From: an uncultured Nitrospirales bacterium
Lineage (GTDB): Bacteria; UBA10199; JADGCS01
Assembly: GCA_964526915.1 (NCBI GenBank)
Contig: CAZGMS010000072.1
Coordinates: 7,341 to 71,340, forward strand
DNA: 64,000 nt
Direction: 5' to 3'
The position numbers were made by a program, and so were the translations under genes. The notes below the pieces were generated by a model. The model was given only the letters and a program-made list of their open reading frames with translations. It was not told the origin of the DNA and ran no database searches. Position 1 is the first letter of the stretch. Every line of letters begins with the position of its first letter. Shown in pieces: positions 4,547-60,605 of the stretch.

Positions 4547-4591
4547 AATGATCAGTGCCTCAATTTTAGGATATTAGTCAAACATCAGCCA

Positions 4592-17215: not shown

Positions 17216-17226
17216 GTATTATTATT

Positions 17227-18183: not shown

Positions 18184-18198
18184 TGGAGGTGCCCTTTA

Positions 18199-19089: not shown

Positions 19090-19129
19090 TTTTTCATCCC
19101 CCTAATGGTTCATCCATCTGTTTTCTTGT

Positions 19130-20005: not shown

Positions 20006-20020
20006 CCTTTTTAGTTCTGT

Positions 20021-20551: not shown

Positions 20552-20593
20552 GGCATATTAGGCATCTTGAAAATACAGATTAAAGCACGGCTA

Positions 20594-28727: not shown

Positions 28728-29505
28728 CATTGATTTTTTCGGCCACACAGACCAGGGAACCTCCAAAGGGGAATGACAAACCGTAAGCGATCATCAACAT
28801 TTCAACATCACAAACCCGTTCGAAGATCCAATTGATCCATCGTGCAATTTTGAATTCAGAAAGAATGTCCTGAGTTGAATTCGATTTTAAACTCTTTTTC
28901 AACCAGATTCTAGAAACAAACATGAACGGCAACAAGAGGGCCATGAAAGACGAAACCCAAACCATTCTGAACCCGCTTTTTTTTAGTTTGATGGTAAGTT
29001 CTTCACAAGTGTACCTTCGTTTATGGCAAGCAACCTCATCCTGAGAACTCCACAACCAAGCATGTTGCGGCACAGTCAGAATAAGCCCCCCACCCTTTTT
29101 CAGACCCTGATGAAATTGATTCAAGACACACTCATCTTCCAGAACATGTTCCAGAACATCAAACGCCCCAATAACATCATATTCTTCCCTATACGGCATT
29201 TGCCGCGCGTCCATTTGGAACAGTGACGCATTTTTGAGTCTCTTCTTTGCAAAGCTCAAACCCTCAGAAAACAAATCGCTCCCTGAAATCTGAGTCTCTG
29301 GAAATGACTTTTCGATGGCCGACAAAACAAAGCCAGTTCCACAACCCACCTCAAGAAAAGATTTCATCTGTGGGAAAAATTTTTTAAGAGCCCACAAAAT
29401 CAGGCGGTTTCTTGAACAGAACCAGAAGTTCCGAGATTCTAGTTTCTGGATTTGCCAAAAATAGTCACTATCAAAACCTTGTGAAAGATTAACTGCGCCT
29501 ATCAT
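28708..29505 (-). CDS. Class I SAM-dependent methyltransferase
   Basis: 265 aa. Motif I FLEVGCGTGFVLSAI and post-II IGAFDVLEHV. Confidence 0.8.
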   Translation of the reverse strand: MIGAVNLSQGFDSDYFWQIQKLESRNFWFCSRNRLILWALKKFFPQMKSFLEVGCGTGFVLSAIEKSFPETQISGSDLFSEGLSFAKKRLKNASLFQMDARQMPYREEYDVIGAFDVLEHVLEDECVLNQFHQGLKKGGGLILTVPQHAWLWSSQDEVACHKRRYTCEELTIKLKKSGFRMVWVSSFMALLLPFMFVSRIWLKKSLKSNSTQDILSEFKIARWINWIFERVCDVEMLMIAYGLSFPFGGSLVCVAEKINDENTIQ

Positions 29506-32340: not shown

Positions 32341-33206
32341 GTATTTTCCAAAACCCTCAATAGATATTCACCGTAACCAGATTTTAACAATGGCTGCGCA
32401 AGTTGCCTGAGTTGCTTGGCAGAAATGAATCCCATTCTGTAGGCGATTTCTTCTATGCAGGCAATTTTCAGACCCTGTCGATCTTCAATAGTTTTTATAA
32501 ACATCGCTGCATCGGCCAAAGAAGCATGAGTGCCCGTATCTAACCAGGCAAAACCTCGCCCCAACATGCGCACATTCAGTTTGCCTTGGGCCAAATAGGC
32601 AGTATTGACGTCTGTGATTTCCAGTTCCCCCCGAGGAGAAGGCTTGATTGTTTTTGCAATTTTAGCGGCCACATTGTCATAAAAATACAATCCCACAACG
32701 GCATAATTTGATTTGGGTTGCTCCGGCTTTTCCTGCAAAGAAATGGCTTTCATATTTTTGTCAAATTCAACTACTCCATAGTTCTGAGGATTGTTGACAT
32801 AATAGCCAAATATTGTTGCGCCGTTCACGTTCACTGAAACATTTTTCAGCAATCCCTGAAGCCCATCGCTGTAAAATATGTTATCTCCCAAAATCAGGCA
32901 AACAGAATCACCTGCAATAAAATTTTCACCCAAAATAAGAGCCTCCGCCAAACCACGCGGCTGTTCTTGAACTTTGTAGTTAAAAGAAAGTCCCAATTTA
33001 CTGCCGTCACCAAAAAGCATCTTAAATCGGGGAAGATCTTCTGGTGTGCTGATGATGAGAATTTCACGAATGCCAGCAAGCATAAGTGTGGAAAGAGGGT
33101 AATAGATGAGCGGTTTGTCGTACACCGGTAACAGCTGTTTACACGCTACTTGCGTTATTGGATACAACCTGGTTCCAGAGCCACCTGCTAAGATAATGCC
33201 TTTCAT
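32337..33206 (-). CDS. rmlA: Glucose-1-phosphate thymidylyltransferase
   Basis: 289 aa. [18 protein letters not shown] and LGDNIFY. ATGA overlaps on both sides. Confidence 0.95.
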
Positions 33207-34816
33207 AAATTTTCTCCTCTATATGAAACCTCATACTCAAGCACATCACGAAACTGATATTGTAAAACTTGATTCTTAATTTTTTTTCCAAATTCAGGAC
33301 AATACCAGTTCTGAAGGAACTTCGGAGCACACAGAGAACGGATACAAACCCTCACGCCCTTATAAAAAATATTCACCTCGCTGTCAGCAATAGTAATCTG
33401 AGCCTCGGGCACAGCATGTAGGTATGAGGCGCAACAATATTGGTTAGCTGAAATAACAGCATCTCTAATGACAAGCGCATTTTCATTCATAAGGATCCTT
33501 CTTGTTACCAATGGTTTTCCCAAAAGGTAACAGTACCCCGTATGCGCCGCCTCAATCATAACCGAAGAATTTTCTTCTACAATAGAAGTTTCCAAAGGAT
33601 AACCTCTTCGCCCCACCCTGTGGGCCGCCCATATCTCTGCTTGTTCCTGGTCATCAACAGTCACCGTGTTATGAGCAGAAGTTGATCGGCAATACTGCCG
33701 CATGGCTGATGGTAAATATTCATAGTTGCCACTGTCAACGATCACAGGGACACCATCAATCCACAAACAAAAAGAAAGCATATCACAATGGGCATGACCA
33801 GGCTGATGATCAGGACCAATTTTTCCCACATCTTGAATCAGCGTAAACCTACCTTTTTTGACGACAACATAACCCGAATCCTTTAGCCACGTCACTTCAC
33901 CATCTTCCTCCGGGCAATGCCACCCCAATAGATCCTGTCCATATTCAAACAGGTCATCCGCCTGAGGGGCACCCTCATACCCTGCATCCCCAAACAGAGC
34001 GAATTTTCCATCAACACTCATGTGCCACAACCAATTCAAACCCTTATGTGCCACATCAATCAACTTGCCATAAACGTTTTGCGAAAGGGGACGGTTGCGG
34101 GTCAAATTGAGGATATCAAGAATGCGTTCCAGCAAAATGGCATGATACATTGGCGACAATTCATAATGCCCGCCATCAGCCAAAAACTGTGCATCGATTT
34201 CTTTGACCAACTGATCATAAATAATTTGTTGTTGTGATGTTTTGCAACAGACGTGGCTCACCAAATACAAAGCGAAAAGATTTTCCAATAAGTGATTGCC
34301 CAAAAGATGGTACTCTCGTCGTGCATAAAGAACGGATGCCTGCTGTGCCAGCGACAACCGTATCTTGGCAGAGTCTGAGAGTCGCCCTTGAGCCAACAAC
34401 TTGATCCATGTGACCATACGGAGTGAGATGGGATAAGCCTCCCAGCCATTACCCTTAAATGGAGAGTTGTCATCAATCCATTTGTTTACCCAATCGTCAA
34501 CGGGACAATCGTCCTCCAGTAACCAATCCTGATAGTGCAAACGATAACTCCAGAGCTTGTCATTTTTTACAAAATCCCAATCACGACCCACCAAAGTATT
34601 TTGTTTGTTGTTGAAAAGAAATGCTCCACTGCCAAGATAATGTTTGCGATTAGCCACTGGGAAAGACAACTCCGGTTTTAGAGAACACGATGAAATAATA
34701 AATATCTTCTTTGGACATAATGGCATCACAGCATAATATAGCCTGTAAAATATTTGAGATGCTTTCAAATGTTTCAGTGTTCTAAAATATCTGCTCATGT
34801 AACCAAAACAATTCAT
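33203..34816 (-). CDS. Heparinase II/III-family protein (biosynthetic-locus type)
   Basis: 537 aa. [14 protein letters not shown] and [27 protein letters not shown] resemble heparinase II/III-like C-terminal motifs. Confidence 0.65.
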
Positions 34817-36966
34817 TGTGTTATTAGTAAAGTTTCTCTGGTTTTGATGGCTTCACTTACCAAAAAAGTCGCCTCTGTTGTGACAAAGATTTCATCAAGA
34901 GGGATAGGGTGTTGGTGCTTGTTGATCACAGCAGAGAAAAAAGCCAAAAACTCCTCCTGAAACCCCTTGCTTTGTTTGCCTTTCAGTTTTTTTCGGCCCA
35001 ATTTCCCAAAACATTCTGTACTCACAAAATCCTTCATTAAACACACAGACTCATCCACAAATATCTCGCCCTGTTCTTTGGGATGGTCACGAGATCCAAA
35101 CGATGTGTAAATAAAATTAGCCAGAGAACCATCTGAATACTCAATATTGATCGAAACATTGTCGGCGGCCTGTCGCTCTGCATTATCACCACCAACAGAG
35201 CAAGCTTGCACTGTCCGCGGCATAGCAGACAAAATATAACTGACAAAATCAATAAAATGACAAACTTCACCAATGATACGCCCTCCCCCCTTAATGGGAT
35301 CATGAACCCAGGAGTCATAAGGAATGTGCCCCGCATTGATGCGATAATTTACCACCGCGGGCGATGTTTTTTTCGCCAAATAGTCTCTCAAAAGCTTGGC
35401 ATGTGGCGAAAAACGCCTGTTAAACCCTACAGTCAATATTCCAGAGTGAATTTGAACAGCTTGTTTGATGGCTTCCAATTCGTCCCTGTTCAACGCAAGG
35501 GGTTTTTCTACAAAAACATTTTTTCCCGCCTCTAGAGCCTTTACAACCAATCCGGCATGAGAATCATGACGGGTCGCAATCACAACGGTATTGATTCGTG
35601 GGTCAGCAAAAAGTTCGGCAGAATCCGTCGTGACGTACTCAAATCCTGTTTTTTTTGCGACTGCCGTGATATCAATTCCTGTTGTGGCACAAAGACATCT
35701 GAGTGAAATGTGATTTTGTTTTTGCAAAGCAGGCAACAACACAGCTTTTGCAAAATTGCCCATGCCAATCATACCCACGACACAATCGGTTACCTGATGG
35801 TTCTGTCCACAAATCACTTTGCGTTCTGGGACTCTCGTCGTTCCGTCAGATTTGCCATAACCAATCACAATACCCAAATACTCACTTTTTTCCCTGCCCA
35901 ACAACAAATCGTAGGCCTTGAGTCCTTCGGCAATATCATACTCATGTGTGATCATCTTGGAAGGAGTCACATGGCCATCGGCAATCAAATCCAAAAAGAA
36001 CTCAATGTTTCGTTGTTCAGTCCAACGCACATAGCCATAAGGATAATCATGCCCCTTTTCTTCATAATTGGTATCATAGCGTCCGGGCCCGTAAGACATG
36101 CTCAGTTTGAAATCCAGTTCCTTTTTGTAAAACACATCCCTGGGTATGTTCATTCCAACCATGCCCGTCACCACCACTTTGCCCTTATGACGCGCAATCT
36201 GGCCTGCCAGCTCAACAGGCTCATTGGAATTCGTTGCCGCTGTGATGAGAACGCCATCAACACCATTTCCCTTTGAAAAAGCATCGCATGTGGCCACAAG
36301 ATTGTCCTTAACCACAGAATCAGCCCCAAGCTCTTGCGCCAATGAACAGCGTCGTGCATCAGGGTCAAAACCCACCACTTTGGCACCACTGGCTTTCAAA
36401 ATTTGTACAGCAAAAAGCCCAAGCAAACCCAATCCCATCACACAAACAGTTTCACCTACCCTCACATCACATTGCCTGACACCCTGCAGGGCAATCGCAC
36501 CCACCGTTGCACAGGACGCATCCCTAAAAGAAACCTTGTCGGGAATTTTGACCAGCAGATTTTTTGGTACATAATTGAACTCCGCATGGTTCGCATAACC
36601 TGCCCCTGCGCAGGCCACACGATCACCATTCACCAACCCCTTGACCCCTTGTCCAACCTCCACCACCACACCAGCACACGAATAGCCCAAAGGAATAGGC
36701 TGATCGAGTTTGGCCTGTACCTTTTCCCAGGTTTCAAACAATCCCTCAGTCTTAATTTTTTGAATCACTTTTTTGACCTGATCAGGCATGGCACAGGCCT
36801 TGCCCAATAAATTTTTCTGGGCAAACGACACCAACATTTTTTCGGTACCTGATGAAATAAACGAATGATGTGTTTCAACCACAACGCCTTCCGGTTTGAG
36901 TATGGGTACAGGCACGTCCGCCAACCAGATTTCTCCTGTTTTGAATGACTGAATAATTTGTTTCAT
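34813..36966 (-). CDS. Bi-domain oxidoreductase: N-terminal MDR zinc-type alcohol dehydrogenase fused to C-terminal Gfo/Idh/MocA
   Basis: N-terminal half has GYSCAGVVVEVG and VMGLGLLGLFAVQIL. C-terminal half has VGMIGMGNFAKAVLLPAL, VVIATRHDSHAGL and VFVEKPLAL. Start taken at Met 36966 (MKQIIQSF). Confidence 0.8.
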   Translation of the reverse strand: MKQIIQSFKTGEIWLADVPVPILKPEGVVVETHHSFISSGTEKMLVSFAQKNLLGKACAMPDQVKKVIQKIKTEGLFETWEKVQAKLDQPIPLGYSCAGVVVEVGQGVKGLVNGDRVACAGAGYANHAEFNYVPKNLLVKIPDKVSFRDASCATVGAIALQGVRQCDVRVGETVCVMGLGLLGLFAVQILKASGAKVVGFDPDARRCSLAQELGADSVVKDNLVATCDAFSKGNGVDGVLITAATNSNEPVELAGQIARHKGKVVVTGMVGMNIPRDVFYKKELDFKLSMSYGPGRYDTNYEEKGHDYPYGYVRWTEQRNIEFFLDLIADGHVTPSKMITHEYDIAEGLKAYDLLLGREKSEYLGIVIGYGKSDGTTRVPERKVICGQNHQVTDCVVGMIGMGNFAKAVLLPALQKQNHISLRCLCATTGIDITAVAKKTGFEYVTTDSAELFADPRINTVVIATRHDSHAGLVVKALEAGKNVFVEKPLALNRDELEAIKQAVQIHSGILTVGFNRRFSPHAKLLRDYLAKKTSPAVVNYRINAGHIPYDSWVHDPIKGGGRIIGEVCHFIDFVSYILSAMPRTVQACSVGGDNAERQAADNVSINIEYSDGSLANFIYTSFGSRDHPKEQGEIFVDESVCLMKDFVSTECFGKLGRKKLKGKQSKGFQEEFLAFFSAVINKHQHPIPLDEIFVTTEATFLVSEAIKTRETLLITQ

Positions 36967-36968
36967 AG

Positions 36969-38132
36969 TCACGATTTCCTTGTCATTACAGGTTGTACAA
37001 ACGACAAACAATCCACCCACCCCTGAACATAAGTGTGAATGTTGTATCTGTTATTAATGATATCCTGAGCATGGCTTTTCAGACGTTGTTTGTACGGCTG
37101 ATCCTCACACATTTTTTTCAAATAACCACACAGGCGTTCTTCATTCAGGTCTTCGTCAAGAACGCCATTATTTTTATTGATCAGATCAACCTCACACCCA
37201 TCTCCCGCCGTTGCAATGACCGGTACCCCATGTAGCAATGCGTCAGATATGGCCAATCCTCCCAATCCAGGCAAAACCATTACATCGGCCTTGAAAAAAT
37301 ATTGTGAAACCCCATCCCTCTGTTCTCCAACAAATTGAATATTCCTGATGTTCCATTCACGCGCCAAAGAGCGTAACCTGGCATCGTCCTCTCCCTTGCC
37401 AACAATCAACAAGCACACTTCTTGAGACACAAATTTTTCCAGTTCCGCAAAGGCCTTCAACAAAACATCCACTTTTTTCTCTTTCGTAAGAACCCCAACA
37501 TACAACACCACAAAATCAAACCGAGAATGAATGTCTCTGTAAAGAAGGGAACGGTCAAAACAAGCCATATCCTTGAGTCGTTGCTCGGTATCCACAACAT
37601 TCAACGCCACAAAGATTTTATGGGAATCAATACCAAGGCGTTCATAATACGCTTTGCCCACAGAACTGTAAGTCAAACAGGCCTCTGAACGACGCTCTAA
37701 AAAGTGAATGATCGGATCCATGACTCTACGATGCCATGATTTTTTGCGCTTGCTGATTTCACCCAGACTCCACTGAACAACTTTGCGTCTGAACAGCCAA
37801 GCATAAAATTGGGCTTGCATGCCATTGAGAAAATTGGAGGCCCCCTTTACAACAACCACATCGGGTGAGAACCTGAGAAGTTCAATAAACACAAACGGAC
37901 TGAATGACGAGTAACCTTTTCCATTTGATGTGCTGATCCGAATGGGTATTGAAAACATTTCTTTTGATGCAAAGCTATGCGATTTTTTTGAATTAACAAG
38001 CTTAGTGCCTTTCACATCACAGCCATGAAATACTTTGATGTGCAAACTTTCAACCTGACTCAAGCGTTCGTAAACTGAGACCCGGTAATCTTGAATGACA
38101 CGAGGCAATATGGCAACACGCATTTTTGTCAT
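36969..38132 (-). CDS. Glycosyltransferase family 4 (GT-B)
   Basis: 387 aa. C-terminal VLPGLGGLAISDALLHGVPVIAT donor-binding motif. Confidence 0.75.
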   Translation of the reverse strand: MTKMRVAILPRVIQDYRVSVYERLSQVESLHIKVFHGCDVKGTKLVNSKKSHSFASKEMFSIPIRISTSNGKGYSSFSPFVFIELLRFSPDVVVVKGASNFLNGMQAQFYAWLFRRKVVQWSLGEISKRKKSWHRRVMDPIIHFLERRSEACLTYSSVGKAYYERLGIDSHKIFVALNVVDTEQRLKDMACFDRSLLYRDIHSRFDFVVLYVGVLTKEKKVDVLLKAFAELEKFVSQEVCLLIVGKGEDDARLRSLAREWNIRNIQFVGEQRDGVSQYFFKADVMVLPGLGGLAISDALLHGVPVIATAGDGCEVDLINKNNGVLDEDLNEERLCGYLKKMCEDQPYKQRLKSHAQDIINNRYNIHTYVQGWVDCLSFVQPVMTRKS

Positions 38133-39124
38133 GCAGACACTATCCTTTTAACGTCAGAAAAAGATAATGTCTTTGTTTCCAAAAGCAGGGTTTTTAACGC
38201 CTGATGAGTCTTTGCTGTCCACAACTTGGGATGATGCACCCACACTTGAAATAACCGTTTTTTTTGTCTGCCTTTTTTGAGTTGTTTCATGACCAAATCA
38301 ACACTAGCCAAATCAAGGGTAGATGACCTCAATTCAGACAATAGTAATCGTAAAATTTGTTTTGCCAACGGCTTGGGCTTACGCAATCCCTGACCATCAC
38401 CACAACGAGCGCTCCTGCGCATTTGGAAATAATTTTTTAACAAGGTCCTTCCTGAAATCTTCACCGAAGTCATGGGTACTTCAAAAAACTTACCCAGTTC
38501 TTGTGGCAAACACGGATCATTTTCAAAACGCCAGTAATCTTTTTCCTGCGGTGCTTTTGTAAAATCATATGCTGCTTGCTCGTTATCATTGTTTGCAATC
38601 CCTGGCCGCACACTAAAATCATAGTGCAAACCCTGTGATAACATGTGATTCTTCAGTTCTTGAAACGGCTGAACACACCAGCCACCAGCCCTGAAGGCCT
38701 GCACTTTGTATGCTGGACAAACTTGCTGGACAATCTCTTCAATCATCTCCTTGCCACTTGCAATCAAAGCACCTCTCTCGCGCTCACCCAAGGATTGTAA
38801 CCGGTATCTCTCGTGAGTCTTGAATGTCCACTCGTTACCATTTAGCGGTACAGCATCAAGCCATTGTGGATGCAAATGCAAACCAAAATCATGGCCCGCT
38901 TTTGCCATCTCAATGATTTGTGCCCTGACTTTTTCAAAATCAGGGTGTCGTTGTGCAACAAGATGCAAAAGGTAGCTGGCATCAATAAAGAAGATGCCTG
39001 TCGCATTGTGTTCTTTCAATATCTGTAAAATAGCAGATGTCGGTTCAAGGAGACATTTCTGTGCTGTCCCGCTATGAGCACCCAAAAAAAGCTCATAATC
39101 AAATGTGAGAACAATCTGATTCAT
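38129..39124 (-). CDS. Polysaccharide deacetylase family protein (CE4-like)
   Basis: 331 aa. IVLTFDYELFLG and GHDFGLHLHPQW. It resembles the deacetylase that accompanies FemAB-like genes in EPS loci. Confidence 0.7.
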   Translation of the reverse strand: MNQIVLTFDYELFLGAHSGTAQKCLLEPTSAILQILKEHNATGIFFIDASYLLHLVAQRHPDFEKVRAQIIEMAKAGHDFGLHLHPQWLDAVPLNGNEWTFKTHERYRLQSLGERERGALIASGKEMIEEIVQQVCPAYKVQAFRAGGWCVQPFQELKNHMLSQGLHYDFSVRPGIANNDNEQAAYDFTKAPQEKDYWRFENDPCLPQELGKFFEVPMTSVKISGRTLLKNYFQMRRSARCGDGQGLRKPKPLAKQILRLLLSELRSSTLDLASVDLVMKQLKKGRQKKRLFQVWVHHPKLWTAKTHQALKTLLLETKTLSFSDVKRIVSA

Positions 39125-40118
39125 GTGATCGTGCTCTTTCTTGATCGATAATGTCGCCTGTATATTTCAACCCCCTGGCATAGGCATTCAGTTTGGCCGT
39201 GGCTGTGAACAACTTATAGCGCAAGGGTTTCAAAGGGTATTTCCACAAATAGCCCACCTTCAGCTGGCCTCCAAAACGCGATTTGAACCGCTGAATACTT
39301 TCCTGCCTGGAGCCTGGTAGCGGCGACATTCTGGCACCCATAAAATCATACACAAGCACTCCGTGCGCCTTCATGTCCAACATGATCTTCCACTGCAAAT
39401 AATTCATTGCTCCCAAACTTGGTCCTTCAATACTGCCACCATGCAAATAATATGCAGAGCTCCCTGCTTTCCAAATCACAACGGCACAACCCTGACTTTT
39501 ACCATTTTTTTTTGCCACATAAAATGAAACTTGGTCTCCCAACTCGGCGGCCAACCTCATTAATTCACCTTTCCTTGCCCACGGGAGGGATTGTCGTTGC
39601 ATGGTCTGTTGTATCAAACGTGCACATTCATCCAGATATTCAGTCCCTGATACAATTTGCACTCCCTCCGCCATTGCCTTTCTGATGACATTTCTATGTT
39701 TGTGATGGAGCCCGGCAAACAAATCACTTTCCTGTGCTGTCAAATCAACTTGGAATGAACTGAACTGGCAATGAATGGAGTTTTGAGGACACGCACGAAA
39801 AACGGCGGAGGTATGCGGCTGATAGATAAAATCAACATTCAGTTGTTTTGACAACTCAACGACCTCACCTAAAAAGAGTCTCTCCGCCTCTGCTGATACC
39901 GGCTCCACAAACACAGTAGCGGAAGGAAAAACCAGTCTGTTAAAAAAAGCCCTGCGCTCAACAACATAGGGCAGTATCATTTGGTCAGACACAAACCAGC
40001 CGTATTCACCCGATGAACGAGCCTTCAAATAGCCCTCTGTGGCCACAATAGGAAGAGGCGTCAATAAGACAGGTTCTGTTTTTTCAATTTTGATCAACAA
40101 AGTTCTCAACTTTTGCAA
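39099..40118 (-). CDS. FemAB-family / GNAT-fold aminoacyl transferase-like protein
   Basis: 339 aa. SSAYYLHGGS and RFKSRFGG motifs are characteristic of FemA/FemB/FemX-like proteins. Confidence 0.65.
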   Translation of the reverse strand: MQKLRTLLIKIEKTEPVLLTPLPIVATEGYLKARSSGEYGWFVSDQMILPYVVERRAFFNRLVFPSATVFVEPVSAEAERLFLGEVVELSKQLNVDFIYQPHTSAVFRACPQNSIHCQFSSFQVDLTAQESDLFAGLHHKHRNVIRKAMAEGVQIVSGTEYLDECARLIQQTMQRQSLPWARKGELMRLAAELGDQVSFYVAKKNGKSQGCAVVIWKAGSSAYYLHGGSIEGPSLGAMNYLQWKIMLDMKAHGVLVYDFMGARMSPLPGSRQESIQRFKSRFGGQLKVGYLWKYPLKPLRYKLFTATAKLNAYARGLKYTGDIIDQERARSHESDCSHI

Positions 40119-41172
40119 ACAAATACTTCATGCGCTCGGAATGGTCTTCGATGGGCAGTTCCACAACACAACCTGATATTTTTTCGGCACACGGAAAATT
40201 TGAAGTGTCTTCGGTCAACAAAGCATAACCCATACCGACATGAATCTGCATGGCCAGCATGTATCTATAAAAACTTTGTGCCACCTGCCTGGTCTCAAAA
40301 CAAAGAACGATTTTATGCGGTGCAGACTGACCCCGAATAGCCTTGATGATTCTGAATTTCTTGCCATCAGAAAATTTGTTCATAAATGCATCGTGATATT
40401 TTTTTCGAAAAGCAAATGCTCCTCCCAACATACCGTGTACAGTCCCTCCCAAAAAACATTCCTCAAAAGAACCAAAACCATCATTGTAAAGAAAATGGGC
40501 GCGTTCCAAAAAAACATTCAATATATTCAGAATCCAAAGACAACAGGACCAATAACTCCAAAAAAAATCTTTTTGCCTTCCATACCTAAACAGCAACCAT
40601 CTCACAAAATGCACCAATGGGTGATGAGTCAGTTTCCAATCATAATCCAAATTATCTGTCCAAAAGAAGCCCCCCATGGCACCGGGAGTGGCCTTGCCGG
40701 GACCAATAGAAAACAATCCTGCATTGCCAAATGTTCCGAGAAAGCGACCATCCAACACAGCACCAAAACTCTGCGCTGAGTCATCAATCAGAAACGCCCC
40801 ATTCCCTTTACAAATCAATTCAATGTCACTCATGCTGGCGGGATTGCCATACAAACTGGGAGCTACCAACGCTGATACATCGTTTTCCTGCAAACATTTT
40901 TTGATGCTTGCCACTGATGGGTTGAGATCCTCCTCGTCGCAATCAAAAAAAATGGGGGTTAATCCCAGACGTCTGAGAGGAACTAATAATGACCCACAAG
41001 CGTACGCGGGCAAAGCAACATTGCCCTTTGCCGAAAAAGACCTCAGAGCATGATAAATACCAGCTTTGCCACTTGCGGCATAATGCCAATCCTTACCCGT
41101 TATCTGATTGAGTTTTGGTAAATCAAGGGGGCACTCATCAACAAAAGGCGGCCTAAACTTGGCTATTTTCAT
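40084..41172 (-). CDS. Divergent DegT/DnrJ/EryC1-family PLP aminotransferase
   Basis: 362 aa. LIDDSAQSFGAVLDGRFLGTFG and FSIGPGKATPG (candidate PLP Lys). Confidence 0.6.
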   Translation of the reverse strand: MKIAKFRPPFVDECPLDLPKLNQITGKDWHYAASGKAGIYHALRSFSAKGNVALPAYACGSLLVPLRRLGLTPIFFDCDEEDLNPSVASIKKCLQENDVSALVAPSLYGNPASMSDIELICKGNGAFLIDDSAQSFGAVLDGRFLGTFGNAGLFSIGPGKATPGAMGGFFWTDNLDYDWKLTHHPLVHFVRWLLFRYGRQKDFFWSYWSCCLWILNILNVFLERAHFLYNDGFGSFEECFLGGTVHGMLGGAFAFRKKYHDAFMNKFSDGKKFRIIKAIRGQSAPHKIVLCFETRQVAQSFYRYMLAMQIHVGMGYALLTEDTSNFPCAEKISGCVVELPIEDHSERMKYLFAKVENFVDQN

Positions 41173-42419
41173 AAAAACAGTTCTTCGTACCTTTGAGTCA
41201 AGTGAGGGATATCAAAGTTGTCAAAATCGCATGATGGCATTTTTGCAGACAAATAATCTTCTTTCATTTGTTTGAGGGTCTTAATGATATCATCTACATC
41301 ATAGCGGGCCACATAATGCCCCTTCACCTTCAGCAATTCATACAATTCACCACCATTTGAAATCAGGAATATTTTTCTTCGAGTGGCCATGTAATCAAAG
41401 ACTTTTGTTCCAAAGGCATAGGGATACATTTCGGCATTAATACTCAAACCAAAACTGTAAGTTGGCATATTGGCCGAGATTTGCTTCAAGGGGGTTTCTG
41501 AATAACGGTGAAAATATTTACTGAACACGGCTGAGTCTCTCATTACGCTGTACAGTGCATCCTGGTCTTTGCCAAAGATATCCACCGTAAAATTATTTTG
41601 AAAATATTCATCTTGCATCTTATTCAGGGCAGAACACAAAAGGGTAAATGCGGGTATTCGCGAATCCGGGATATTGCCTATGTAAATCATTTTAAAGTCT
41701 GCCAAGCCCGGGTTTATGATGGCACAGCCATAATCATCAACATCATAACCATTGTGAATACAGACAAACTTTTTTGAAAAAGATCCATAGGTTTTCTTCA
41801 TTCTATGCAAAATGTCATTTGTGGGAAATACGATGACATCCGAATAAATCATCGATACAATTTCCATATAAACTGATTTTTCCTTCTGCCAAAAATAATT
41901 CAATTTTTTTAAATACTGGTAATCAACATCATCGTTCCAGGAATCACGATAATCTTGAATCAAATGAATCTCTGGATTTTCAATTTTAAGAAATGCGCTG
42001 GTATAATGAAGAGAACTCGGAGGCCCTGTGACCACAACGTTTTTAATGTGGTGTTCTTTGATGACGGCCCGGGCACAGGGAATCAGTTTTGAGCCCCATC
42101 TTTGGGCAGGATCCAAGTAGTACATCGTCTTCATGAGAACAAACCGTAAAAATTTTCGAAAATACCTTCCCAAAATATTTTTTGATGATGATGACAACAG
42201 CCACATAGGGTAATTGGCTGAAATCCTGTGAACATGAATATTTTCGTGTTGAACATCTGTTCCCCAATTTACATTCCCTTTTTTTGAACATTTGGTTGTA
42301 ATCACATGGACCACATAGCCCCTTTGGGCCAAATATTTAGAGAATTTTGCCCAACGGCGCGTACCCACACCCCCCATAGGGGGGAATTTAAACGCAATCA
42401 CTAGTAATTGTTTTTTCAT
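41169..42419 (-). CDS. Glycosyltransferase, GT4-like
   Basis: 416 aa. N-terminus LLVIAFKFPPMGGVGTRRWAKFSKYLAQRGYVVHVIT is typical of the GT4 N-terminal domain. Confidence 0.6.
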   Translation of the reverse strand: MKKQLLVIAFKFPPMGGVGTRRWAKFSKYLAQRGYVVHVITTKCSKKGNVNWGTDVQHENIHVHRISANYPMWLLSSSSKNILGRYFRKFLRFVLMKTMYYLDPAQRWGSKLIPCARAVIKEHHIKNVVVTGPPSSLHYTSAFLKIENPEIHLIQDYRDSWNDDVDYQYLKKLNYFWQKEKSVYMEIVSMIYSDVIVFPTNDILHRMKKTYGSFSKKFVCIHNGYDVDDYGCAIINPGLADFKMIYIGNIPDSRIPAFTLLCSALNKMQDEYFQNNFTVDIFGKDQDALYSVMRDSAVFSKYFHRYSETPLKQISANMPTYSFGLSINAEMYPYAFGTKVFDYMATRRKIFLISNGGELYELLKVKGHYVARYDVDDIIKTLKQMKEDYLSAKMPSCDFDNFDIPHLTQRYEELFL

Positions 42420-42430
42420 TTTCCCACGTT

Positions 42431-43795
42431 TTATGTTGCTGTTAAGATATTTTCAAAACATTCCTTCCATCCTGGCCACCCCAAATCTGAAAACATTGTA
42501 TTATGAGAAAGAAGGGTAAAAATCCCCTGGTACTTTTTAACCTGCTCTTTTAACTTGCTAAGACCACCATGCACGACTTCCATATCACGCATACCCTGAT
42601 ATTTGTAAAATGCCCCATCCATTGCTACCAAGGGCAACTCTCTTAAGCGAAGTTTTTTTTGCGATAGGATATTGAAAACTGGGTAATCCTGACACACACC
42701 GCACCTGAACCCAGCCATCTCAGGGTATCCTAACGTGGAATCAACTGCCATCCCATTATCTTCCCAAATCTGCCACGTTGTGGGCACCTCAAATTTCAAA
42801 TAGTGCTGTCTCCCAGATTGAACGCCCTCCCAGCCCTGATTTGCCAAGACTTGATTCAATCTCTGCTTTTCGATTTTCCACTTGTTTCCATCATTACATG
42901 TATCATAGCCCGGGTGAAATCCAATCACATGTTCATTCTCCCTGATTATCCTCAAATTGTGCTCGGCAAACACGGTATCCAATCTATATCCCGAATCACG
43001 CCTGCTTTTGACAGCAGACATGAAATTAAATTGGATGGTCGCATCACATCGCCTTCCCATATCGACCAATTCAGAGTAAAGATCATAGGGATCCTTGTTG
43101 CCAAAATGTCTACAAGACAAACTGCCCACCATACTCTTTGAAGCCGCTCTCAGACTTTTATTAAGAAGAAGATCACCGCCTACTCTACGAATCAGACCCC
43201 AGACATCTTGGGGATAATAGGTCAATATATCCACATCAATACTGGGAGCCATACGATAACGACTGTGCTTTTTCTGTGCCTGCCCATCCAAATGATGAAT
43301 CATCCGAAACAACATTTGAGCATATTCATGCACTATGGGCCGTTCCAAGAAACCCTGTTTGACTGCAAGCGACTGATCTGCAGGAAATCGGCCATGAATA
43401 TCGCGAATGAGATTAACGTGTTCCTCCCACCTCGTCAGCATGAAAAAAGATGACGCAAAGACATCGACACCACAGATGATTCGGTCTGACGACACAGAAC
43501 ACTCATCAGTACCAAAAATAGTGGGCAAAGGAGCCTTATCAACAAACTGGTTATCAACAAATGAGGTGCGAGAAGGGATGTTGCGATTATCCAAATAGGT
43601 AACATCAGAACAAAACTGGTTGAAAAAGTTATCCCTCACTACAATGATTTTTCGATTTTCCAATACAATTTCATAATCCTTGATTGGTCTGGCACAGACA
43701 CAGACATCAATCCCCAATAATTCCCTAAAAAGAACCTCAATAACATATTCCCGTTCGGCTACATGGTTGTCCGGAATGTTGATAACAATACCCAT
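42431..43795 (-). CDS. Putative polysaccharide deacetylase-fold protein with an extra N-terminal domain
   Basis: 454 aa. C-terminal half has VIGFHPGYDT, GRQHYLKFEVP and VDSTLGYPEMAGFRCGV...LPLVAMDG. The pattern is shared with ORF 8403-9230. Confidence 0.4.
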   Translation of the reverse strand: MGIVINIPDNHVAEREYVIEVLFRELLGIDVCVCARPIKDYEIVLENRKIIVVRDNFFNQFCSDVTYLDNRNIPSRTSFVDNQFVDKAPLPTIFGTDECSVSSDRIICGVDVFASSFFMLTRWEEHVNLIRDIHGRFPADQSLAVKQGFLERPIVHEYAQMLFRMIHHLDGQAQKKHSRYRMAPSIDVDILTYYPQDVWGLIRRVGGDLLLNKSLRAASKSMVGSLSCRHFGNKDPYDLYSELVDMGRRCDATIQFNFMSAVKSRRDSGYRLDTVFAEHNLRIIRENEHVIGFHPGYDTCNDGNKWKIEKQRLNQVLANQGWEGVQSGRQHYLKFEVPTTWQIWEDNGMAVDSTLGYPEMAGFRCGVCQDYPVFNILSQKKLRLRELPLVAMDGAFYKYQGMRDMEVVHGGLSKLKEQVKKYQGIFTLLSHNTMFSDLGWPGWKECFENILTAT

Positions 43796-43796
43796 T

Positions 43797-44522
43797 CTAA
43801 ATTCTTTCTCTCCTAGAACCCGATAACCAACGACTTAGTAGTAACCGACTTTGTCTGGCTATTTTGATACAAGTTCTTCTTTTGATGGCCTTGATCAATT
43901 GTGATTTATCAATATCACTCATCAATGTTTTTTTTGATTTGATCATGACCATACCGCCCGTTTTCACTGCACTCAGAAACTCGCCGTGTTGATTCAAAAC
44001 AACAATGCAATTTTCCAACTCATTCAAAGAATGAGCATCACCCGCATAACACATACCCTTGCCGTGTTTTTTGGCCAAATCCATTGCCCGTATATTGTCG
44101 ACATTTCGACATCTTGCATTAAACACCTCAATCATATCCACATCTTCCGCAAGCTGATTGATATTTTTATGACCTACATACGGGTGTGGCAACAACAATA
44201 ACCCTCCTTGCTCCCGAACTTCTCGAACAAATGCAGCATATTTGCGAGACTCAATTTCTTTATGAATTCCCATGGCAATCACATCACCATATTCTGTTTG
44301 ATATTCGGCAGAAAGAGGCACTTCAATATTGAGATGATTTTCATTGCAATGCTTCTTGAGTGCCAGCGAACCTTGGATGCTGTCGTGATCCGTCAATACT
44401 AAGAAATCGAGTTTCTGCGCATTGGCCCAGCGAGCCAACCGGGGAATCGACATCACAGAATCATACGAATAGGCTGAATGACAATGAAAAATACCCTTAC
44501 GATTCATACTGGCCATGCACAC
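43797..44522 (-). CDS. PHP-domain metal-dependent phosphoesterase
   Basis: 241 aa. GIFHCHSAYSYDS, DFLVLTDHDS and LLLLPHPY give the His/Asp pattern of the PHP family. Confidence 0.75.
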   Translation of the reverse strand: MCMASMNRKGIFHCHSAYSYDSVMSIPRLARWANAQKLDFLVLTDHDSIQGSLALKKHCNENHLNIEVPLSAEYQTEYGDVIAMGIHKEIESRKYAAFVREVREQGGLLLLPHPYVGHKNINQLAEDVDMIEVFNARCRNVDNIRAMDLAKKHGKGMCYAGDAHSLNELENCIVVLNQHGEFLSAVKTGGMVMIKSKKTLMSDIDKSQLIKAIKRRTCIKIARQSRLLLSRWLSGSRRERI

Positions 44523-45648
44523 AATACTTCACAAATGTTTTGGCAAAGTGCCCTGCCATTTTTATAGTGGGGCGAATATCCGACAGTTGACAGTTATTTT
44601 TTACACGCAAACACAGAGTATCTTTGATCACCCCACACATGGCCTTTGGTCTGAGCATACCGTACATGATGTCGCCATTGAATGGCCAAGTGTACCTGAG
44701 TTTGGATTTTCTGCAAACATCGATCGCAGGTTGCTTACCCAAATGCAGATCCACCATCATTTGCGGGAAATTCACCCCCGCAGAAATGGCAAGCTCAATA
44801 GATCCCCAGAGTTTGGCGTTAATTTCCATCAAAAAGGGACGACCTGATTCATCGACCTTGAATTCGACCATGGCCAAACCATGCCACTGCAAAGCATCCA
44901 AAATTTGTTTTCCGTACTCTGCCACCAATGGATTGAAACCAGTTTCAGCCGCCACACTGCGGCCTCCGCTGGGTGGCATTTCACGAATTCTGCGGTGCTG
45001 AAATGTCACACAACATTTGCCATGATCATACAACGCAAAAAAACCACACCCGTATCCCTTTATGTATTCCTGTAACATCGGTAACAAAGACCCTTCCAAG
45101 TTGTGCTTTTCACACAGCGCATGATACTTGCCCAAAAGATCCCTGTGATGCTCAACATAATCGATCACGTTAACACCCGCTTCCTGCTTTCCCTTGATCA
45201 CAAGGGGGAATTTCAGGGTAGCTCCCAATACTGAGATTTCTTCCCTGTTAAGCGGGTAAAAGGTTTTGGGATAAGGAACACCTATCTTTTCAGCAAGCGC
45301 GTACGTTTTTTCTTTTGACATGGCAACATCGATCTTTGATGCTTCAGCAATCACAATGTCAGAACACAGCCTGATCTCATCCTGCAATTCACTCATGATA
45401 CTGTTGGCCTTGGCACCAACAGGCATGACCATGTCTATCTGATATTGTTTTAAAATATCCAGAAAGGTTTGGTTAAACTCCGGCAGTTCATATTTGGGGA
45501 CAATAATTTCATCAGCGCAATATTTTGACAACGCCGCCAATGAACCGGGCCTATGACTCATCACATAGACTGTGTGGCATTCCTTACCCAAAGCCCTCAC
45601 CACGCCGAGCGTGTGTGTGTAGTTTCCATCTGAAACCAATATTTTCAT
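44497..45648 (-). CDS. ATP-grasp ligase (second copy)
   Basis: MKILVSDGNYTHTLGVVRALG and LAMVEFKVDESGRPFLMEINAKLWGS. The Met at 45648 gives an ATGA overlap (tcat at 45645-45648). Confidence 0.75.
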   Translation of the reverse strand: MKILVSDGNYTHTLGVVRALGKECHTVYVMSHRPGSLAALSKYCADEIIVPKYELPEFNQTFLDILKQYQIDMVMPVGAKANSIMSELQDEIRLCSDIVIAEASKIDVAMSKEKTYALAEKIGVPYPKTFYPLNREEISVLGATLKFPLVIKGKQEAGVNVIDYVEHHRDLLGKYHALCEKHNLEGSLLPMLQEYIKGYGCGFFALYDHGKCCVTFQHRRIREMPPSGGRSVAAETGFNPLVAEYGKQILDALQWHGLAMVEFKVDESGRPFLMEINAKLWGSIELAISAGVNFPQMMVDLHLGKQPAIDVCRKSKLRYTWPFNGDIMYGMLRPKAMCGVIKDTLCLRVKNNCQLSDIRPTIKMAGHFAKTFVKYCVHGQYES

Positions 45649-46406
45649 TTGTGAAGAATAAGAAAATAAAATGCTGAACAACGTGGAATCGCAGTTGCCA
45701 AAAATCTGTCCAGCTTATTGAATAGTGCAAATAAGCCACAACGACCTAACACGCGCAACACAGTACTCCAACACAAAAACAGACAAGTGCCATTTGTTTC
45801 CATAATCTTGAAACCCGCATTGCTTACAAGATTTTCGATATCGTGTGCTGAAAACTGCCAATGACAGAATGATTCCGGAGACACCTCTTTGCGATGTAGC
45901 TGTTTTTCGCGTCTCCAATATAAACTATTTTTATTGGGCATGGAAAAAATGATCTTACCATCATTTTTTAGGACACGGCGCAACTCATCTAAAGCCTTGG
46001 GTCTGTTTTCCACATGTTCAATCACTTCACTGCATATGATCAAGTCAACACTATCGCTCTCCAAAGGAATTTCTGTCAAATCTGCTATGACAATTTCTAT
46101 TTTATCCAAGAGTTCTGGATACTTTTCAAAATTCTTTCTCATCCGCACCACTTCTTCCCTTGAAGATTCAAGGGCCACAACACGAACAGCCACTTTACTT
46201 GCCAAATAAGTATTTGGCCCTTTTCCTGCCCCCGCATCCAGAACTGTCCTGGCAGGATATGTTTTCAGATACTGATTGATCAATGTGACCCGTTGACGAT
46301 GTTGATAGCGCCAAACGGAAAACTGATCACCGTAATCATGAAAATCATCCATGAAAGGCAACGGATAGGCATTGGCAATATCGTCAGATTGTGCAACATT
46401 CCACAT
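45645..46406 (-). CDS. Class I SAM-dependent methyltransferase
   Basis: 253 aa. VLDAGAGKGPNT and LIICSEVIEHV. Confidence 0.8.
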   Translation of the reverse strand: MWNVAQSDDIANAYPLPFMDDFHDYGDQFSVWRYQHRQRVTLINQYLKTYPARTVLDAGAGKGPNTYLASKVAVRVVALESSREEVVRMRKNFEKYPELLDKIEIVIADLTEIPLESDSVDLIICSEVIEHVENRPKALDELRRVLKNDGKIIFSMPNKNSLYWRREKQLHRKEVSPESFCHWQFSAHDIENLVSNAGFKIMETNGTCLFLCWSTVLRVLGRCGLFALFNKLDRFLATAIPRCSAFYFLILHK

Positions 46407-53186: not shown

Positions 53187-53204
53187 CCGCTTTATACAAA
53201 ACGA

Positions 53205-55393: not shown

Positions 55394-55394
55394 T

Positions 55395-56645: not shown

Positions 56646-56667
56646 GGTAGCTTCCTCCTATGATGAT

Positions 56668-57489: not shown

Positions 57490-57518
57490 AGTTTACCTCT
57501 CCACTCTGATAGGGTTAA

Positions 57519-59147: not shown

Positions 59148-59187
59148 CTTTTAACCACAATATTTATCAGTTATCCTGACAAGGAAA

Positions 59188-60594: not shown

Positions 60595-60605
60595 AGTAAC
60601 ATCAG

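Follow-up and report, generated by a model that had tools for sequence, protein, structure and literature searches.

The question raised by this locus is whether three overlapping genes encode a route for attaching an amino acid to an amino sugar. A sequence-only reading had proposed a single unit of a divergent DegT-type PLP enzyme, a FemAB-type transferase and a CE4-type deacetylase, which would free a sugar amine and then aminoacylate it. Three overlapping minus-strand open reading frames (ORFs), together spanning exactly the claimed stretch, were found in the window (the whole 64 kb stretch of DNA that was analyzed):

40084-41172, minus strand: DegT-like ORF, a divergent PLP enzyme of 362 aa, 5'-most of the trio
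39099-40118, minus strand: Fem-like ORF, a tandem-GNAT protein of 339 aa with a TTG start, predicted aminoacyl transferase
38129-39124, minus strand: CE4-like ORF of 331 aa, predicted cytoplasmic sugar de-N-acetylase

Each quoted motif (FSIGPGKATPG, YYLHGGS, RFKSRFGG, TFDYELFLG and HLHPQW) was found in the translations, and the family identities (divergent DegT-type PLP, FemAB-type and CE4-fold) agreed with Pfam matches to DegT_DnrJ_EryC1, FemAB and Polysacc_deac_1. The claimed overlaps, 35 nt between the DegT-like and Fem-like genes and 26 nt between the Fem-like and CE4-like genes, were those of the maximal ORFs. The public gene call gives a Fem-like protein of 332 aa starting at TTG 40097, which was also favoured by the family alignment, and the true start is likely TTG 40097 or 40100. 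The first overlap is therefore probably 14–17 nt, not 35 nt. Since independent assemblies carry identical proteins and the gene set was found again in unrelated phyla, the arrangement is not due to chance.

Gene neighbourhoods were counted, using naive ORF calling, in 51 loci flanked on each side by 4 kb or more of sequence. In 42 loci a CE4-like gene lay on the same strand no more than 2.5 kb from the Fem-like gene, and in 46 it was present somewhere in the locus; strict adjacency lowered the figure to 27/50. Single-polypeptide fusions of the Fem-like and CE4-like domains existed in both domain orders. Fusions with a glycosyltransferase were also found, namely CE4::Fem::GT1 (P0360, once) and Fem::GT1 (P0346), and in another locus a CE4-like domain was fused to a GT4-like domain. 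This close coupling supported the proposed Fem-like/CE4-like association. The trio as a unit did not hold: the DegT-like subtype of the window adjoined the Fem-like gene in only 9 of the 51 loci, and also in C. hyointestinalis. The constant core is the Fem-like and CE4-like pair, often with a GT4-family glycosyltransferase, and the DegT-like gene is an accessory that most loci lack. The module is widespread, with loci in at least 12 phyla; its cultured carriers include Campylobacter hyointestinalis (CP040464.1), Psychromonas hadalis and Clostridium symbiosum ATCC 14940. Because the CE4-like gene was absent from about 5 of the 51 loci, the acceptor amine can have another origin.

The Fem-like protein matched Pfam FemAB (46.5 bits) and Acetyltransf_6 (38.4 bits). 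It had at least 243 homologues, and its family comprised 397 representatives (50% identity, E ≤ 1e-30). The AF2 model (pLDDT 94) showed a tandem GNAT fold. Its best Foldseek matches in the PDB were Sbb17/Sba18 (E 1.7e-15), followed by FemX and MprF. F278-K279, within RFKSRFG, was invariant in the family and aligned to the FK of Staphylococcus aureus FemX and Sbb17; the key catalytic residues are Lys305 in FemX and Lys329 in DhpH-C (PMC12945691). The basic helix HSKHRNVIRKA aligned to RRNRSKVRLALKRG of FemX. A C-terminal GDIIDQE motif was invariant in the family and not found in FemX. Loss of conserved residues had been named as a point against the proposal; the Phe-Lys catalytic motif was retained, and the nearest fold was that of aminoacyl-tRNA-dependent amino-sugar enzymes. 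The fold neighbours and this one motif suggested aminoacyl-tRNA as the putative amino-acid donor. No dedicated tRNA gene was found in the 64 kb window.

It is rather unlikely that the Fem-like protein is instead an ordinary acyl-CoA-dependent tandem GNAT that re-acylates the deacetylated amine with a non-acetyl group of, for example, the 3-hydroxybutanoyl, propionyl or malonyl type instead of an amino acid. The Acetyltransf_6 match is compatible with such an enzyme, VimA itself originally carried an acetyl-CoA transferase annotation (PMC7468200), and aminoacyl-tRNA use has been reported for no Fem-like protein of a polysaccharide locus. The fold is also common to the acetyl-CoA tandem GNATs 2wpw, VipF and Eis; however, acyl-CoA enzymes entered the Foldseek list only at rank 31, with these three at ranks 31–40, whereas ranks 1–28 were held by aminoacyl-tRNA-dependent transferases only. 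CoA-dependent GNATs were absent from the matches to the family profile, which picked up FemX and Sbb17 (E 1e-10 to 1e-12), and the Phe-Lys motif, typical of Fem proteins, was invariant. One family member was fused to a separate AAC(3)-type acetyl-CoA N-acetyltransferase, which counts against this explanation because a Fem-like domain that was a CoA-dependent acyltransferase in its own right would make this second domain redundant.

The CE4-like protein matched Polysacc_deac_1 at 24.9 bits, narrowly above the cut-off of 23.1. Asp, His, His, Arg and His residues were invariant and placed at strand C-termini. The canonical TFDD and HSxxH motifs were replaced by TFDYE and HLH, and no signal peptide was found in the protein. 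It is predicted to be a cytoplasmic CE4-superfamily hydrolase, a sugar de-N-acetylase that is the constant partner of the Fem-like enzyme. Its activity and substrate are uncertain because the canonical motifs are absent and the Pfam score is marginal.

The genes around the trio were as follows:

36969-38132, minus strand: GT4-family glycosyltransferase (Glycos_transf_1, 82 bits), directly downstream of the CE4-like gene with a 4-nt overlap
41169-42419, minus strand: GT4-like glycosyltransferase (Glyco_transf_4, 31 bits), directly upstream of the DegT-like gene with a 4-nt overlap
42431-43795, minus strand: VimE-like (DUF7033) second deacetylase (NF053580, 145.5 bits against a cut-off of 440; DUF7033, 95.7 bits)
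47160-49046, minus strand: AsnB/WbpS-like glutamine amidotransferase (Asn_synthase, 210 bits; TIGR03108, 297 bits against a cut-off of 817)
34813-37020, minus strand: fused Zn-ADH and Gfo/Idh/MocA oxidoreductase (Pfam matches)
25101-26225, minus strand: WecB-type non-hydrolysing UDP-GlcNAc 2-epimerase (TIGR00236, 332 bits against a cut-off of 210)

A GT4-family gene occupied the position equivalent to 36969-38132 in L002, L013, L015, L022 and L086, and this glycosyltransferase is the probable third member of the unit. Homologues of the upstream glycosyltransferase preceded the module in L008, L009, L020, L059, L066 and L068. The VimE-like gene had essentially no counterpart in 80 related loci and does not regularly accompany this Fem-like family; it and an ATP-grasp enzyme, also carried in the window, could be alternative partners. 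Epimerase_2 (WecB-type 2-epimerase) genes lay within 8 kb of the Fem-like gene in 31/51 loci, and UDP-ManNAc dehydrogenase-like genes were found in 11/51. The WecB-type gene of the window would supply UDP-ManNAc. AsnB-like genes lay within 8 kb in 12/51 loci and were also found in C. hyointestinalis; the gene of the window may provide a context for conversion of uronic acid to uronamide. Wzx/Wzy, AsnB-like and Gfo-type genes also belong to the context, and the window is a large surface-polysaccharide locus of the Wzx type. An exosortase/PEP-CTERM setting, raised earlier, was not found: the annotated ORFs of the 64 kb window included no exosortase- or PrsK-type gene.

The DegT-like protein matched DegT_DnrJ_EryC1 (PF01041) with 77 bits, the match being confined to residues 33–174, and had only 44 homologues. 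It lacked about 40 N-terminal residues of canonical DegTs, and its C-terminal domain was divergent. D131, Q134 and K160 were kept in its family, and K160 aligned to the PLP lysine of the canonical DegT of the window (27600-28766). The enzyme may add a further amino group to a keto sugar produced by the Gfo-type oxidoreductase encoded nearby, or it may act on the appended amino acid and remodel it. The Zn-ADH/Gfo fusion is a possible source of the keto sugar. Its orthologues (500–620 bits) lay beside the Fem-like gene in L022, L028, L029, L040, L045 and L084, and one was found in C. hyointestinalis.

The DegT-like enzyme could be imagined to make the acceptor amine itself on the Gfo-made keto sugar, with the Fem-like enzyme aminoacylating it in place of WbpD-type acetylation. 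This is quite improbable, as is the separate role that the CE4-like enzyme would then have, for example leaving an amine free at another site or taking off a formyl or O-acetyl group. In the window the DegT-like gene overlaps the Fem-like one, 25 of the 51 loci had some DegT-family gene no more than 2.5 kb from the Fem-like gene, in two unrelated architectures, and Gfo-type oxidoreductases occurred in 14. Hexapeptide acetyltransferases were rare (5/51), which would leave a new amine dependent on a different acyl donor. However, roughly half of the loci had no DegT gene. The CE4-like gene, by contrast, was nearly constant, with fusions that join it to the Fem-like domain, and the top 150 representatives included no Fem::DegT fusion.

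That the proteins are true peptidoglycan Fem factors for lipid II interpeptide bridges, in a polysaccharide locus by coincidence, is extremely improbable: homologues are automatically annotated as 'lipid II:glycine glycyltransferase' or 'FemA/FemB family' and the Pfam FemAB score is over threshold, but polysaccharide neighbours (Wzx, Wzy, glycosyltransferases, epimerases and sugar dehydrogenases) were present in 51/51 analysable loci, the hosts are mostly diderm lineages, the fusion partners are a sugar deacetylase fold and a glycosyltransferase, and the NF047883 FemX equivalog gave 23 bits against a cut-off of 500.

Aminoacylation of a deacetylated sugar amine was consistent with the evidence, all of it computational, and the Wbp/Vim pathway of Porphyromonas gingivalis and Tannerella forsythia is the experimentally grounded precedent, one that the sequence-only reading had left out (PMC7468200). 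Through VimE and VimA, sugars gain a 2-N-seryl or 2-N-glycyl group, and the amino acid changes when vimA is swapped (PMC7468200). As in the window, a tandem-GNAT protein, a CE4-type deacetylase and a GT4 enzyme are encoded in one operon, with a WbpS-like amidotransferase, a Gfo-type oxidoreductase, a DegT aminotransferase and a 2-epimerase close by. The chemistry of that pathway, removal of a 2-N-acetyl group followed by addition of Ser or Gly, likewise agrees with what is proposed for the window module. The Fem-like family was remotely homologous to a syntenic VimA orthologue over both GNAT domains (hhalign probability 96.4%), but identity was only about 21%, and VimA has RFFREFG where the Fem-like family and FemX carry the catalytic Phe-Lys. 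The CE4-like family gave no profile match to true VimE. The Wbp/Vim product is a protein-anchoring linker, whereas the locus here resembles O-antigen or capsule synthesis, most module hosts are not T9SS organisms, and vimAEF lacks the extra DegT-like gene.

The earlier statement that FemAB and deacetylase genes pair in PEP-CTERM loci was correct (PMC7468200; PMC3684757). The PEP-CTERM/XrtA pairs share a 2-epimerase, a deacetylase, a FemAB-like protein, a GT1 and a WbpS-like amidotransferase with the window (Rubrivivax cluster, PMC3684757; discussed in PMC7468200). The window, by contrast, is a locus of the Wzx/Wzy type. TIGR03019 (FemAB) and TIGR03006 (polysaccharide deacetylase) were the best or only NCBIfam matches of the two window proteins; both proteins fell far below the cut-offs (44.2 against 260.35 bits and 24.8 against 276.2 bits, respectively) and were rejected as members.

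Among other aminoacylating systems, Orf11 aminoacylates an amino sugar with Gly-tRNA, and the aminoacyl-tRNA-dependent Sbb17/Sba18 were crystallised with the amino sugar acceptor streptothrisamine (PDB 9wqw-9wqy; PMC12945691). Orf11/Sba18/Sbb17 (BD-12/glycylthricin) gave the best structural match and the second-best sequence-profile match (E 1e-10), and their transfer from aminoacyl-tRNA to a sugar amine is the chemistry proposed for the Fem-like enzyme. However, identity was about 14%, and these actinomycete secondary-metabolite enzymes act on a small molecule and have no partner deacetylase. FemX, FemA, FemB and MurM share the tandem GNAT fold, the Phe-Lys motif and the basic helix, and they work on nucleotide- or lipid-linked precursors at the cytoplasmic face, as is proposed for the Fem-like enzyme. 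The FemA-type coiled-coil insertion is absent from the Fem-like protein, and the acceptor of the peptidoglycan transferases is a lysine epsilon-amine, whereas a sugar amine in a polysaccharide context is predicted here. DhpH (dehydrophos biosynthesis; PMC12945691), in which a PLP domain and a Fem-like domain form one protein, is a precedent for direct pairing of a PLP enzyme with an aminoacyl-tRNA-dependent Fem-like transferase, although its PLP fold and subfamily differ and its substrate is a phosphonate, not a sugar.

The proposed module has a three-step logic in common with mycothiol (MshA/MshB/MshC) and bacillithiol (BshA/BshB/BshC) synthesis. In these pathways GlcNAc is added by a GT4 glycosyltransferase, its amine is exposed by a deacetylase and an amino acid is then joined to that amine, giving small-molecule thiols. 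The deacetylases have the LmbE/PIG-L fold and the ligases are ATP-dependent and tRNA-synthetase-like, both unrelated to the window enzymes. The window GT1 gene gave a weak BshA match (56.7 bits).

With the folds, conserved catalytic residues, gene coupling and fusions observed, the Fem-like and CE4-like proteins may be viewed as a two-enzyme cassette that serves a Wzx-dependent O-antigen or capsule pathway from its cytoplasmic side. The CE4-fold enzyme would remove the N-acetyl group from a HexNAc-type residue, probably derived from UDP-GlcNAc or UDP-ManNAc or from their uronic acids, either as the nucleotide sugar or after transfer, in the undecaprenyl-linked repeat unit. The Fem-type enzyme would then place an amino acid on the freed amine, most likely from aminoacyl-tRNA, and the adjoining GT4-family glycosyltransferase would handle the same sugar. 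Each of these chemical steps is our inference, and so are the donor, the acceptor and which amino acid is attached. The idea of deacetylation followed by aminoacylation has known precedents. Deacetylation, aminoacylation and transfer would, with reasonable likelihood, make this module a non-orthologous analogue of the VimE/VimA/VimF logic in a Wzx-type O-antigen or capsule pathway.

The three genes described in the sequence-only reading were recovered by ORF calling exactly at their coordinates and on the minus strand, and all motifs quoted for them were found in the translations. The family assignments (DegT, FemAB and CE4-type) were each returned by Pfam, the last only marginally. The trio and three further genes of the window are as follows.

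40084-41172, minus strand: DegT-like PLP enzyme, 362 aa; Pfam DegT_DnrJ_EryC1 77 bits, residues 33-174 only
39099-40118, minus strand: Fem-like transferase, 339 aa, TTG start; Pfam FemAB 46.5 bits, Acetyltransf_6 38.4 bits
38129-39124, minus strand: CE4-like deacetylase, 331 aa; Pfam Polysacc_deac_1 24.9 bits against a cut-off of 23.1
36969-38132, minus strand: GT1, directly after the trio
49115-50425, minus strand: Wzx
27600-28766: canonical DegT, the comparison sequence for the PLP lysine

The overlaps of 35 and 26 nt were confirmed for the maximal ORFs. The public gene call gives the Fem-like protein 332 aa from TTG 40097, a start that agrees with the family alignment; the DegT-like/Fem-like overlap is therefore more likely 14-17 nt. 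Proteins identical to those of the trio were found in independent MAG assemblies.

The AF2 model of the Fem-like protein (pLDDT 94) showed two GNAT domains in tandem. The match to Pfam PF02388 FemAB (gathering threshold 24) was best in the C-terminal part of the profile only, 316-404 of 406. The top PDB neighbours by Foldseek were Sbb17 and Sba18, described there as aminoacyl-tRNA-dependent peptide synthases in complex with streptothrisamine; next came Weissella and S. aureus FemX, and then aa-tRNA-dependent MprF/aaPGS domains. Against FemX and Sbb17 the TM score was 0.62-0.65 over about 320 columns, and at sequence level, too, the family profile matched S. aureus FemX with E 2e-12 and Sbb17 with E 1e-10. 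One alternative is acyl-CoA-dependent re-acylation. It is rather unlikely; acyl-CoA-dependent tandem GNATs appeared only from rank 31 of the structural neighbours.

The pair F278-K279 within IQRFKSRFG was invariant in 28 aligned sequences and aligned with the Phe-Lys of S. aureus FemX and Sbb17. K279 corresponds to K305 of Weissella FemX (F304-K305) by motif, not by direct alignment. The key catalytic lysine is K305 in FemX and K329 in DhpH-C (PMC12945691). Loss of the Fem catalytic residues, the outcome that the sequence-only reading had set against itself, thus did not occur. In the BD-12 pathway, Orf11 uses Gly-tRNA to glycylate the amino sugar of streptothrisamine (PMC12945691). The basic helix HSKHRNVIRKA of the Fem-like protein aligned with FemX RRNRSKVRLALKRG. 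The C-terminal motif GDIIDQE (D322, I324, D325 and E327; window 39099-39170) was invariant in 28 of 28 aligned members and had no FemX counterpart. The literature found on Fem-like enzymes in O-antigen or capsule loci and on tRNA-dependent glycan aminoacylation held no characterisation of this family.

The AF2 model of the CE4-like protein (pLDDT 95) showed a deacetylase-type (beta/alpha) barrel. The fold was seen by fold search only; sequence methods were nearly blind to it, and the family profile gave nothing significant against PDB by sequence. The invariant residues of the family were D9 and E11 (TFDYE), D48, H83 and H85 (HLHPQW), R145-AGG-W149, and H298-P-K300. All of them were placed at the C-terminal ends of predicted strands. 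CE4 active sites lie at C-terminal strand ends. TFDYE and HLHPQW replace the canonical TFDD and H(S/T)xxH of the Asp-His-His metal site, with a different spacing. The enzyme is predicted to be cytoplasmic because strand 1 of the model begins at residue 3.

The Fem-like protein had at least 243 homologues (397 representatives at 50% identity, E ≤ 1e-30) and the CE4-like protein 251; the DegT-like protein had 44 only. A scan of one genome per species gave 116 relatives, and 80 loci were kept. These loci span at least 12 phyla: Campylobacterota, Spirochaetota, Bacteroidota, Bdellovibrionota, Thermodesulfobacteriota, Acidobacteriota, Verrucomicrobiota, Planctomycetota, Chloroflexota, Fibrobacterota, Bacillota and Pseudomonadota. 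Neighbourhoods were counted by our own ORF and HMM analysis in the 51 loci with at least 4 kb on each side. A CE4-like gene lay on the same strand within 2.5 kb of the Fem-like gene in 42/51 and anywhere in the locus in 46/51; these counts are approximate, since strict adjacency with naive ORF calling lowers the CE4-like figure to 27/50. The DegT subtype of the window was present in 9/51 loci, and any DegT-family gene in 25/51. Within 8 kb of the Fem-like gene were Epimerase_2 (31/51), Gfo-type oxidoreductases (14/51), AsnB (12/51) and a UDP-ManNAc-dehydrogenase-like gene (11/51).

Natural fusions are the strongest evidence for a Fem-like/CE4-like unit. Among the representative Fem-like proteins (P-numbers), Fem::CE4 fusions were found in P0296, P0299 and P0331; CE4::Fem in P0357; Fem::GT1 in P0346; and Fem::Fem in P0294 (693 aa). 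The CE4::Fem::GT1 fusion P0360 (1025 aa) mirrors the series Fem, CE4, GT1 of the window. CE4::GT4-like and Fem::AAC(3) N-acetyltransferase fusions occurred in other loci. The full arrangement AsnB, GT, DegT-like, Fem-like, CE4-like, GT1 ... AsnB, ADH/Gfo was found again in cultured Campylobacter hyointestinalis (CP040464.1). The trio had been put forward as one unit; the coupling counts and fusions support a core of Fem and CE4, often with a GT, and the DegT gene is accessory.

A second conserved architecture was seen in Acidobacteriota, Aminicenantes and Syntrophales (related loci L028-L034 and L057-L079). Its order is DUF354, WecB, a 400-aa protein without family, CE4-like, GT2, Fem-like, divergent DegT ... 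GT2, SDR epimerase, Gfo, Wzy. The 400-aa protein (14/51 loci) and DUF354 (13/51) were regular partners. In L076 (9803-11713) a Fem-like domain is joined to an AAC(3)-type aminoglycoside N-acetyltransferase domain, and in Pseudoalteromonas sp. THAF3 (NZ_CP045419.1, 116827-117423) a CE4-like homologue adjoins an AAC(3)-family gene. These associations hint at a later N-acetylation, either of the added amino acid or of a second sugar amine. Two Fem-like genes per locus were present in L029, L030 and L044. By analogy with FemA and FemB, such loci and the Fem::Fem proteins could add two residues in turn to give a dipeptide on the sugar.

In the DegT-like protein, K160, D131 and Q134 were conserved, and K160 aligned with the PLP lysine of the canonical DegT. 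The PF01041 match was confined to the first half of the protein; about 40 N-terminal residues of canonical enzymes were absent, and the C-terminal domain was divergent. In DegT/DnrJ/EryC1/StrS enzymes the N-terminal segment and the C-terminal domain bind the nucleotide sugar. No NCBIfam equivalog scored above 48 bits; their cut-offs are 375 or more. The DegT genes flanking the Fem-like gene in the Acidobacteria/Aminicenantes-type architecture likewise matched DegT models in their N-terminal halves only. The protein is interpreted as a PLP enzyme that is active but has a non-standard substrate. Membrane anchoring by its Trp-rich insertion was considered and dropped because the hydrophobicity is not kept in homologues. 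In a second alternative, the acceptor amine is the DegT product; this seems quite improbable. A true peptidoglycan role, with a peptidoglycan precursor as acceptor, is extremely unlikely on evidence of context: all 51 analysable Fem-like neighbourhoods were polysaccharide loci, and the FemX equivalog NF047883 gave the Fem-like protein 23 bits against 500.

The Wbp/Vim pathway of Porphyromonas gingivalis and Tannerella forsythia is the experimentally grounded precedent and the best analogue of the module. VimE is the proposed deacetylase of UDP-GlcNAc3NAcA at N-2; VimA adds Ser in P. gingivalis or Gly in T. forsythia, and exchanging vimA exchanges the amino acid as well; the pathway also has a GT4, VimF, and an AsnB-type amidotransferase, WbpS (PMC7468200). 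No donor of VimA was reported in the literature found, as of 2026. A syntenic bcp-recA-vimA-vimE locus was recovered from a Parabacteroides distasonis record (L089; VimA orthologue 3913-4866), and its VimE scored 731.7 bits on the VimE model NF053580 (cut-off 440). By hhalign, the Fem-like family matched this VimA with a probability of 96.4% (E 1.2e-9, 247 columns, 21% identity), which makes it a remote homologue and not an orthologue. The absence of a VimA match for the Fem-like protein is uninformative because a scan of the VimA orthologue showed no VimA model in NCBIfam. VimA carries RFFREFG at the position where the Fem-like family, FemX and Sbb17 carry Phe-Lys. Either catalysis is arranged differently in VimA or the alignment is out of register here; the point bears on the donor of VimA. 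The usual neighbour of the Fem-like gene is a CE4-like gene and not VimE. The CE4-like protein had no match to NF053580, and hhalign showed no relationship of its family profile to true VimE or to the separate VimE-like protein of the window (42431-43795), which itself scored 145.5 bits on that model.

The FemAB and polysaccharide deacetylase pair of PEP-CTERM/XrtA loci (TIGR03019 and TIGR03006), to which the genes had been likened, has the same gene grammar as the module (PMC3684757; PMC7468200). The scores, however, were far below the curated cut-offs: TIGR03019 (pepcterm_femAB) gave the Fem-like protein 44.2 bits against 260.35, and TIGR03006 gave the CE4-like protein a partial match of 24.8 bits against 276.2. 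No exosortase (XrtA/EpsH), PrsK/PrsR or PEP-CTERM protein was seen when the window's ORFs of 150 aa or longer were scanned. The module would thus act like VimE/VimA/VimF and like the PEP-CTERM pair and is a member of neither, given the TIGR scores below cut-off, the remoteness of VimA and the lack of VimE similarity.

Plasmid relatives of the Fem-like protein found by tblastn were distant ones only, on D. vulgaris pDV1 and in Streptomyces. On pDV1 of Nitratidesulfovibrio vulgaris (L088, 5859-11560), an ATP-grasp protein, a diaminopimelate-decarboxylase-like PLP enzyme, a Fem-like GNAT and a PaaK-like ligase adjoin the XrtA/PEP-CTERM kinase PrsK. This GNAT is of a different Fem-like subgroup (TIGR03019 76.7 bits, below cut-off), and the locus again sets a Fem-like enzyme beside a PLP enzyme.

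The whole window is transcribed in a single direction, and its content is almost wholly glycan biosynthesis. Before the trio, in the direction of transcription, are Wzx, an AsnB/WbpS-like amidotransferase, two methyltransferases, ATP-grasp, PHP hydrolase, a VimE-like DUF7033 deacetylase and a GT4. After it are GT1, a fused Zn-ADH/Gfo oxidoreductase, a heparinase II/III-like protein, RmlA, RmlB, and further glycosyltransferases and methyltransferases; further along are a WecE-like DegT, a WecB-type 2-epimerase (332 bits; cut-off 210) and a WecA-type initiating transferase. A tRNA scan found no tRNA gene in the window. Four groups of genes were also noted.

42431-45681, minus strand, just upstream of the trio: ATP-grasp ligase (44497-45681), PHP-family hydrolase (43797-44522) and the VimE-like DUF7033 deacetylase
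51915-63986, minus strand: upstream nonulosonic-acid block with NeuB-like, PseH-like GNAT, LegC/PseC-like DegT, BFO_1060-family glycosyltransferase, four radical-SAM genes (two B12-binding methyltransferase-like) and extra methyltransferases
13513-21736, minus strand, between two polysaccharide loci: ATP-grasp, TPP enzyme, MmgE/PrpD, aldo-keto reductase, fumarase-like alpha and beta, TIM-barrel C-C bond lyase
33203-37020: 735-aa Zn-alcohol dehydrogenase and Gfo/Idh/MocA oxidoreductase fusion, adjoining the heparinase II/III-like protein

The first group could be a second, ATP-dependent route of deacetylation and then amide formation, directed at a different sugar in the same repeat unit; its VimE-like protein almost never adjoins the Fem-like family in other loci. 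The second suggests an unusually heavily modified nonulosonic acid, and the organic-acid enzymes of the third may serve an unusual acyl or carboxyalkyl substituent. The Zn-ADH/Gfo fusion was again found beside the Fem-like gene in distant phyla (L022, L027, L084 and L086) and in C. hyointestinalis.

From the observed folds, conserved residues, gene coupling and fusions of the cassette, we infer a chemistry of deacetylation and then aminoacylation, which is the probable reading. The GT4-family transferase and the cassette would act on the same HexNAc-type sugar, derived from UDP-GlcNAc or UDP-ManNAc and possibly a uronic acid or uronamide. The CE4-like enzyme would take off the N-acetyl group; the Fem-like enzyme would use aa-tRNA to aminoacylate the free amine; and the finished unit would be flipped by Wzx. 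A nucleotide-sugar route (as proposed for Vim) and a lipid-linked route both have precedent, since FemX, FemA and FemB act on lipid II and ArnD on a lipid-linked sugar. The GT fusions fit either route. The original idea, that an amine is exposed and then aminoacylated, finds partial support and is sharpened; PEP-CTERM membership and the trio as core fall away.

A joint reading goes further, to pan-bacterial tRNA-dependent glycan aminoacylation with peptide stubs and an amino-acid-editing DegT-like enzyme; taken whole, it is doubtful. Under it, Fem-type enzymes that serve O-antigen or capsule sugars, and not peptidoglycan, would be seen here for the first time, and the Fem::Fem proteins and double-Fem loci would make short peptide stubs that sit on glycans. 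The DegT-like enzyme, without the usual nucleotide-binding segments, would edit the appended amino acid on a lipid-linked intermediate by transamination, elimination or epimerisation, and would not aminate a nucleotide sugar.

The module is uncharacterised and widespread. O-antigens and capsules are often decorated with amino acids (Gly, Ala, Ser and others) in amide linkage; to our knowledge, the enzymes attaching amino acids to sugar amines are largely unassigned. The hypothesis is directly testable because natural fusions and cultured carriers exist, the latter including Campylobacter hyointestinalis (module genes at about 60-63 kb of CP040464.1), Psychromonas hadalis, Clostridium symbiosum (ATCC 14940) and Anaerovibrio lipolyticus. 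If it is true, VimA would gain a comparator that contains the Lys and is more Fem-like. About 400 sequence clusters that at present carry a wrong label, peptidoglycan "FemA/FemB" or "lipid II:glycine glycyltransferase", would also receive a function, and the use of aa-tRNA outside translation would reach surface glycans in many phyla.
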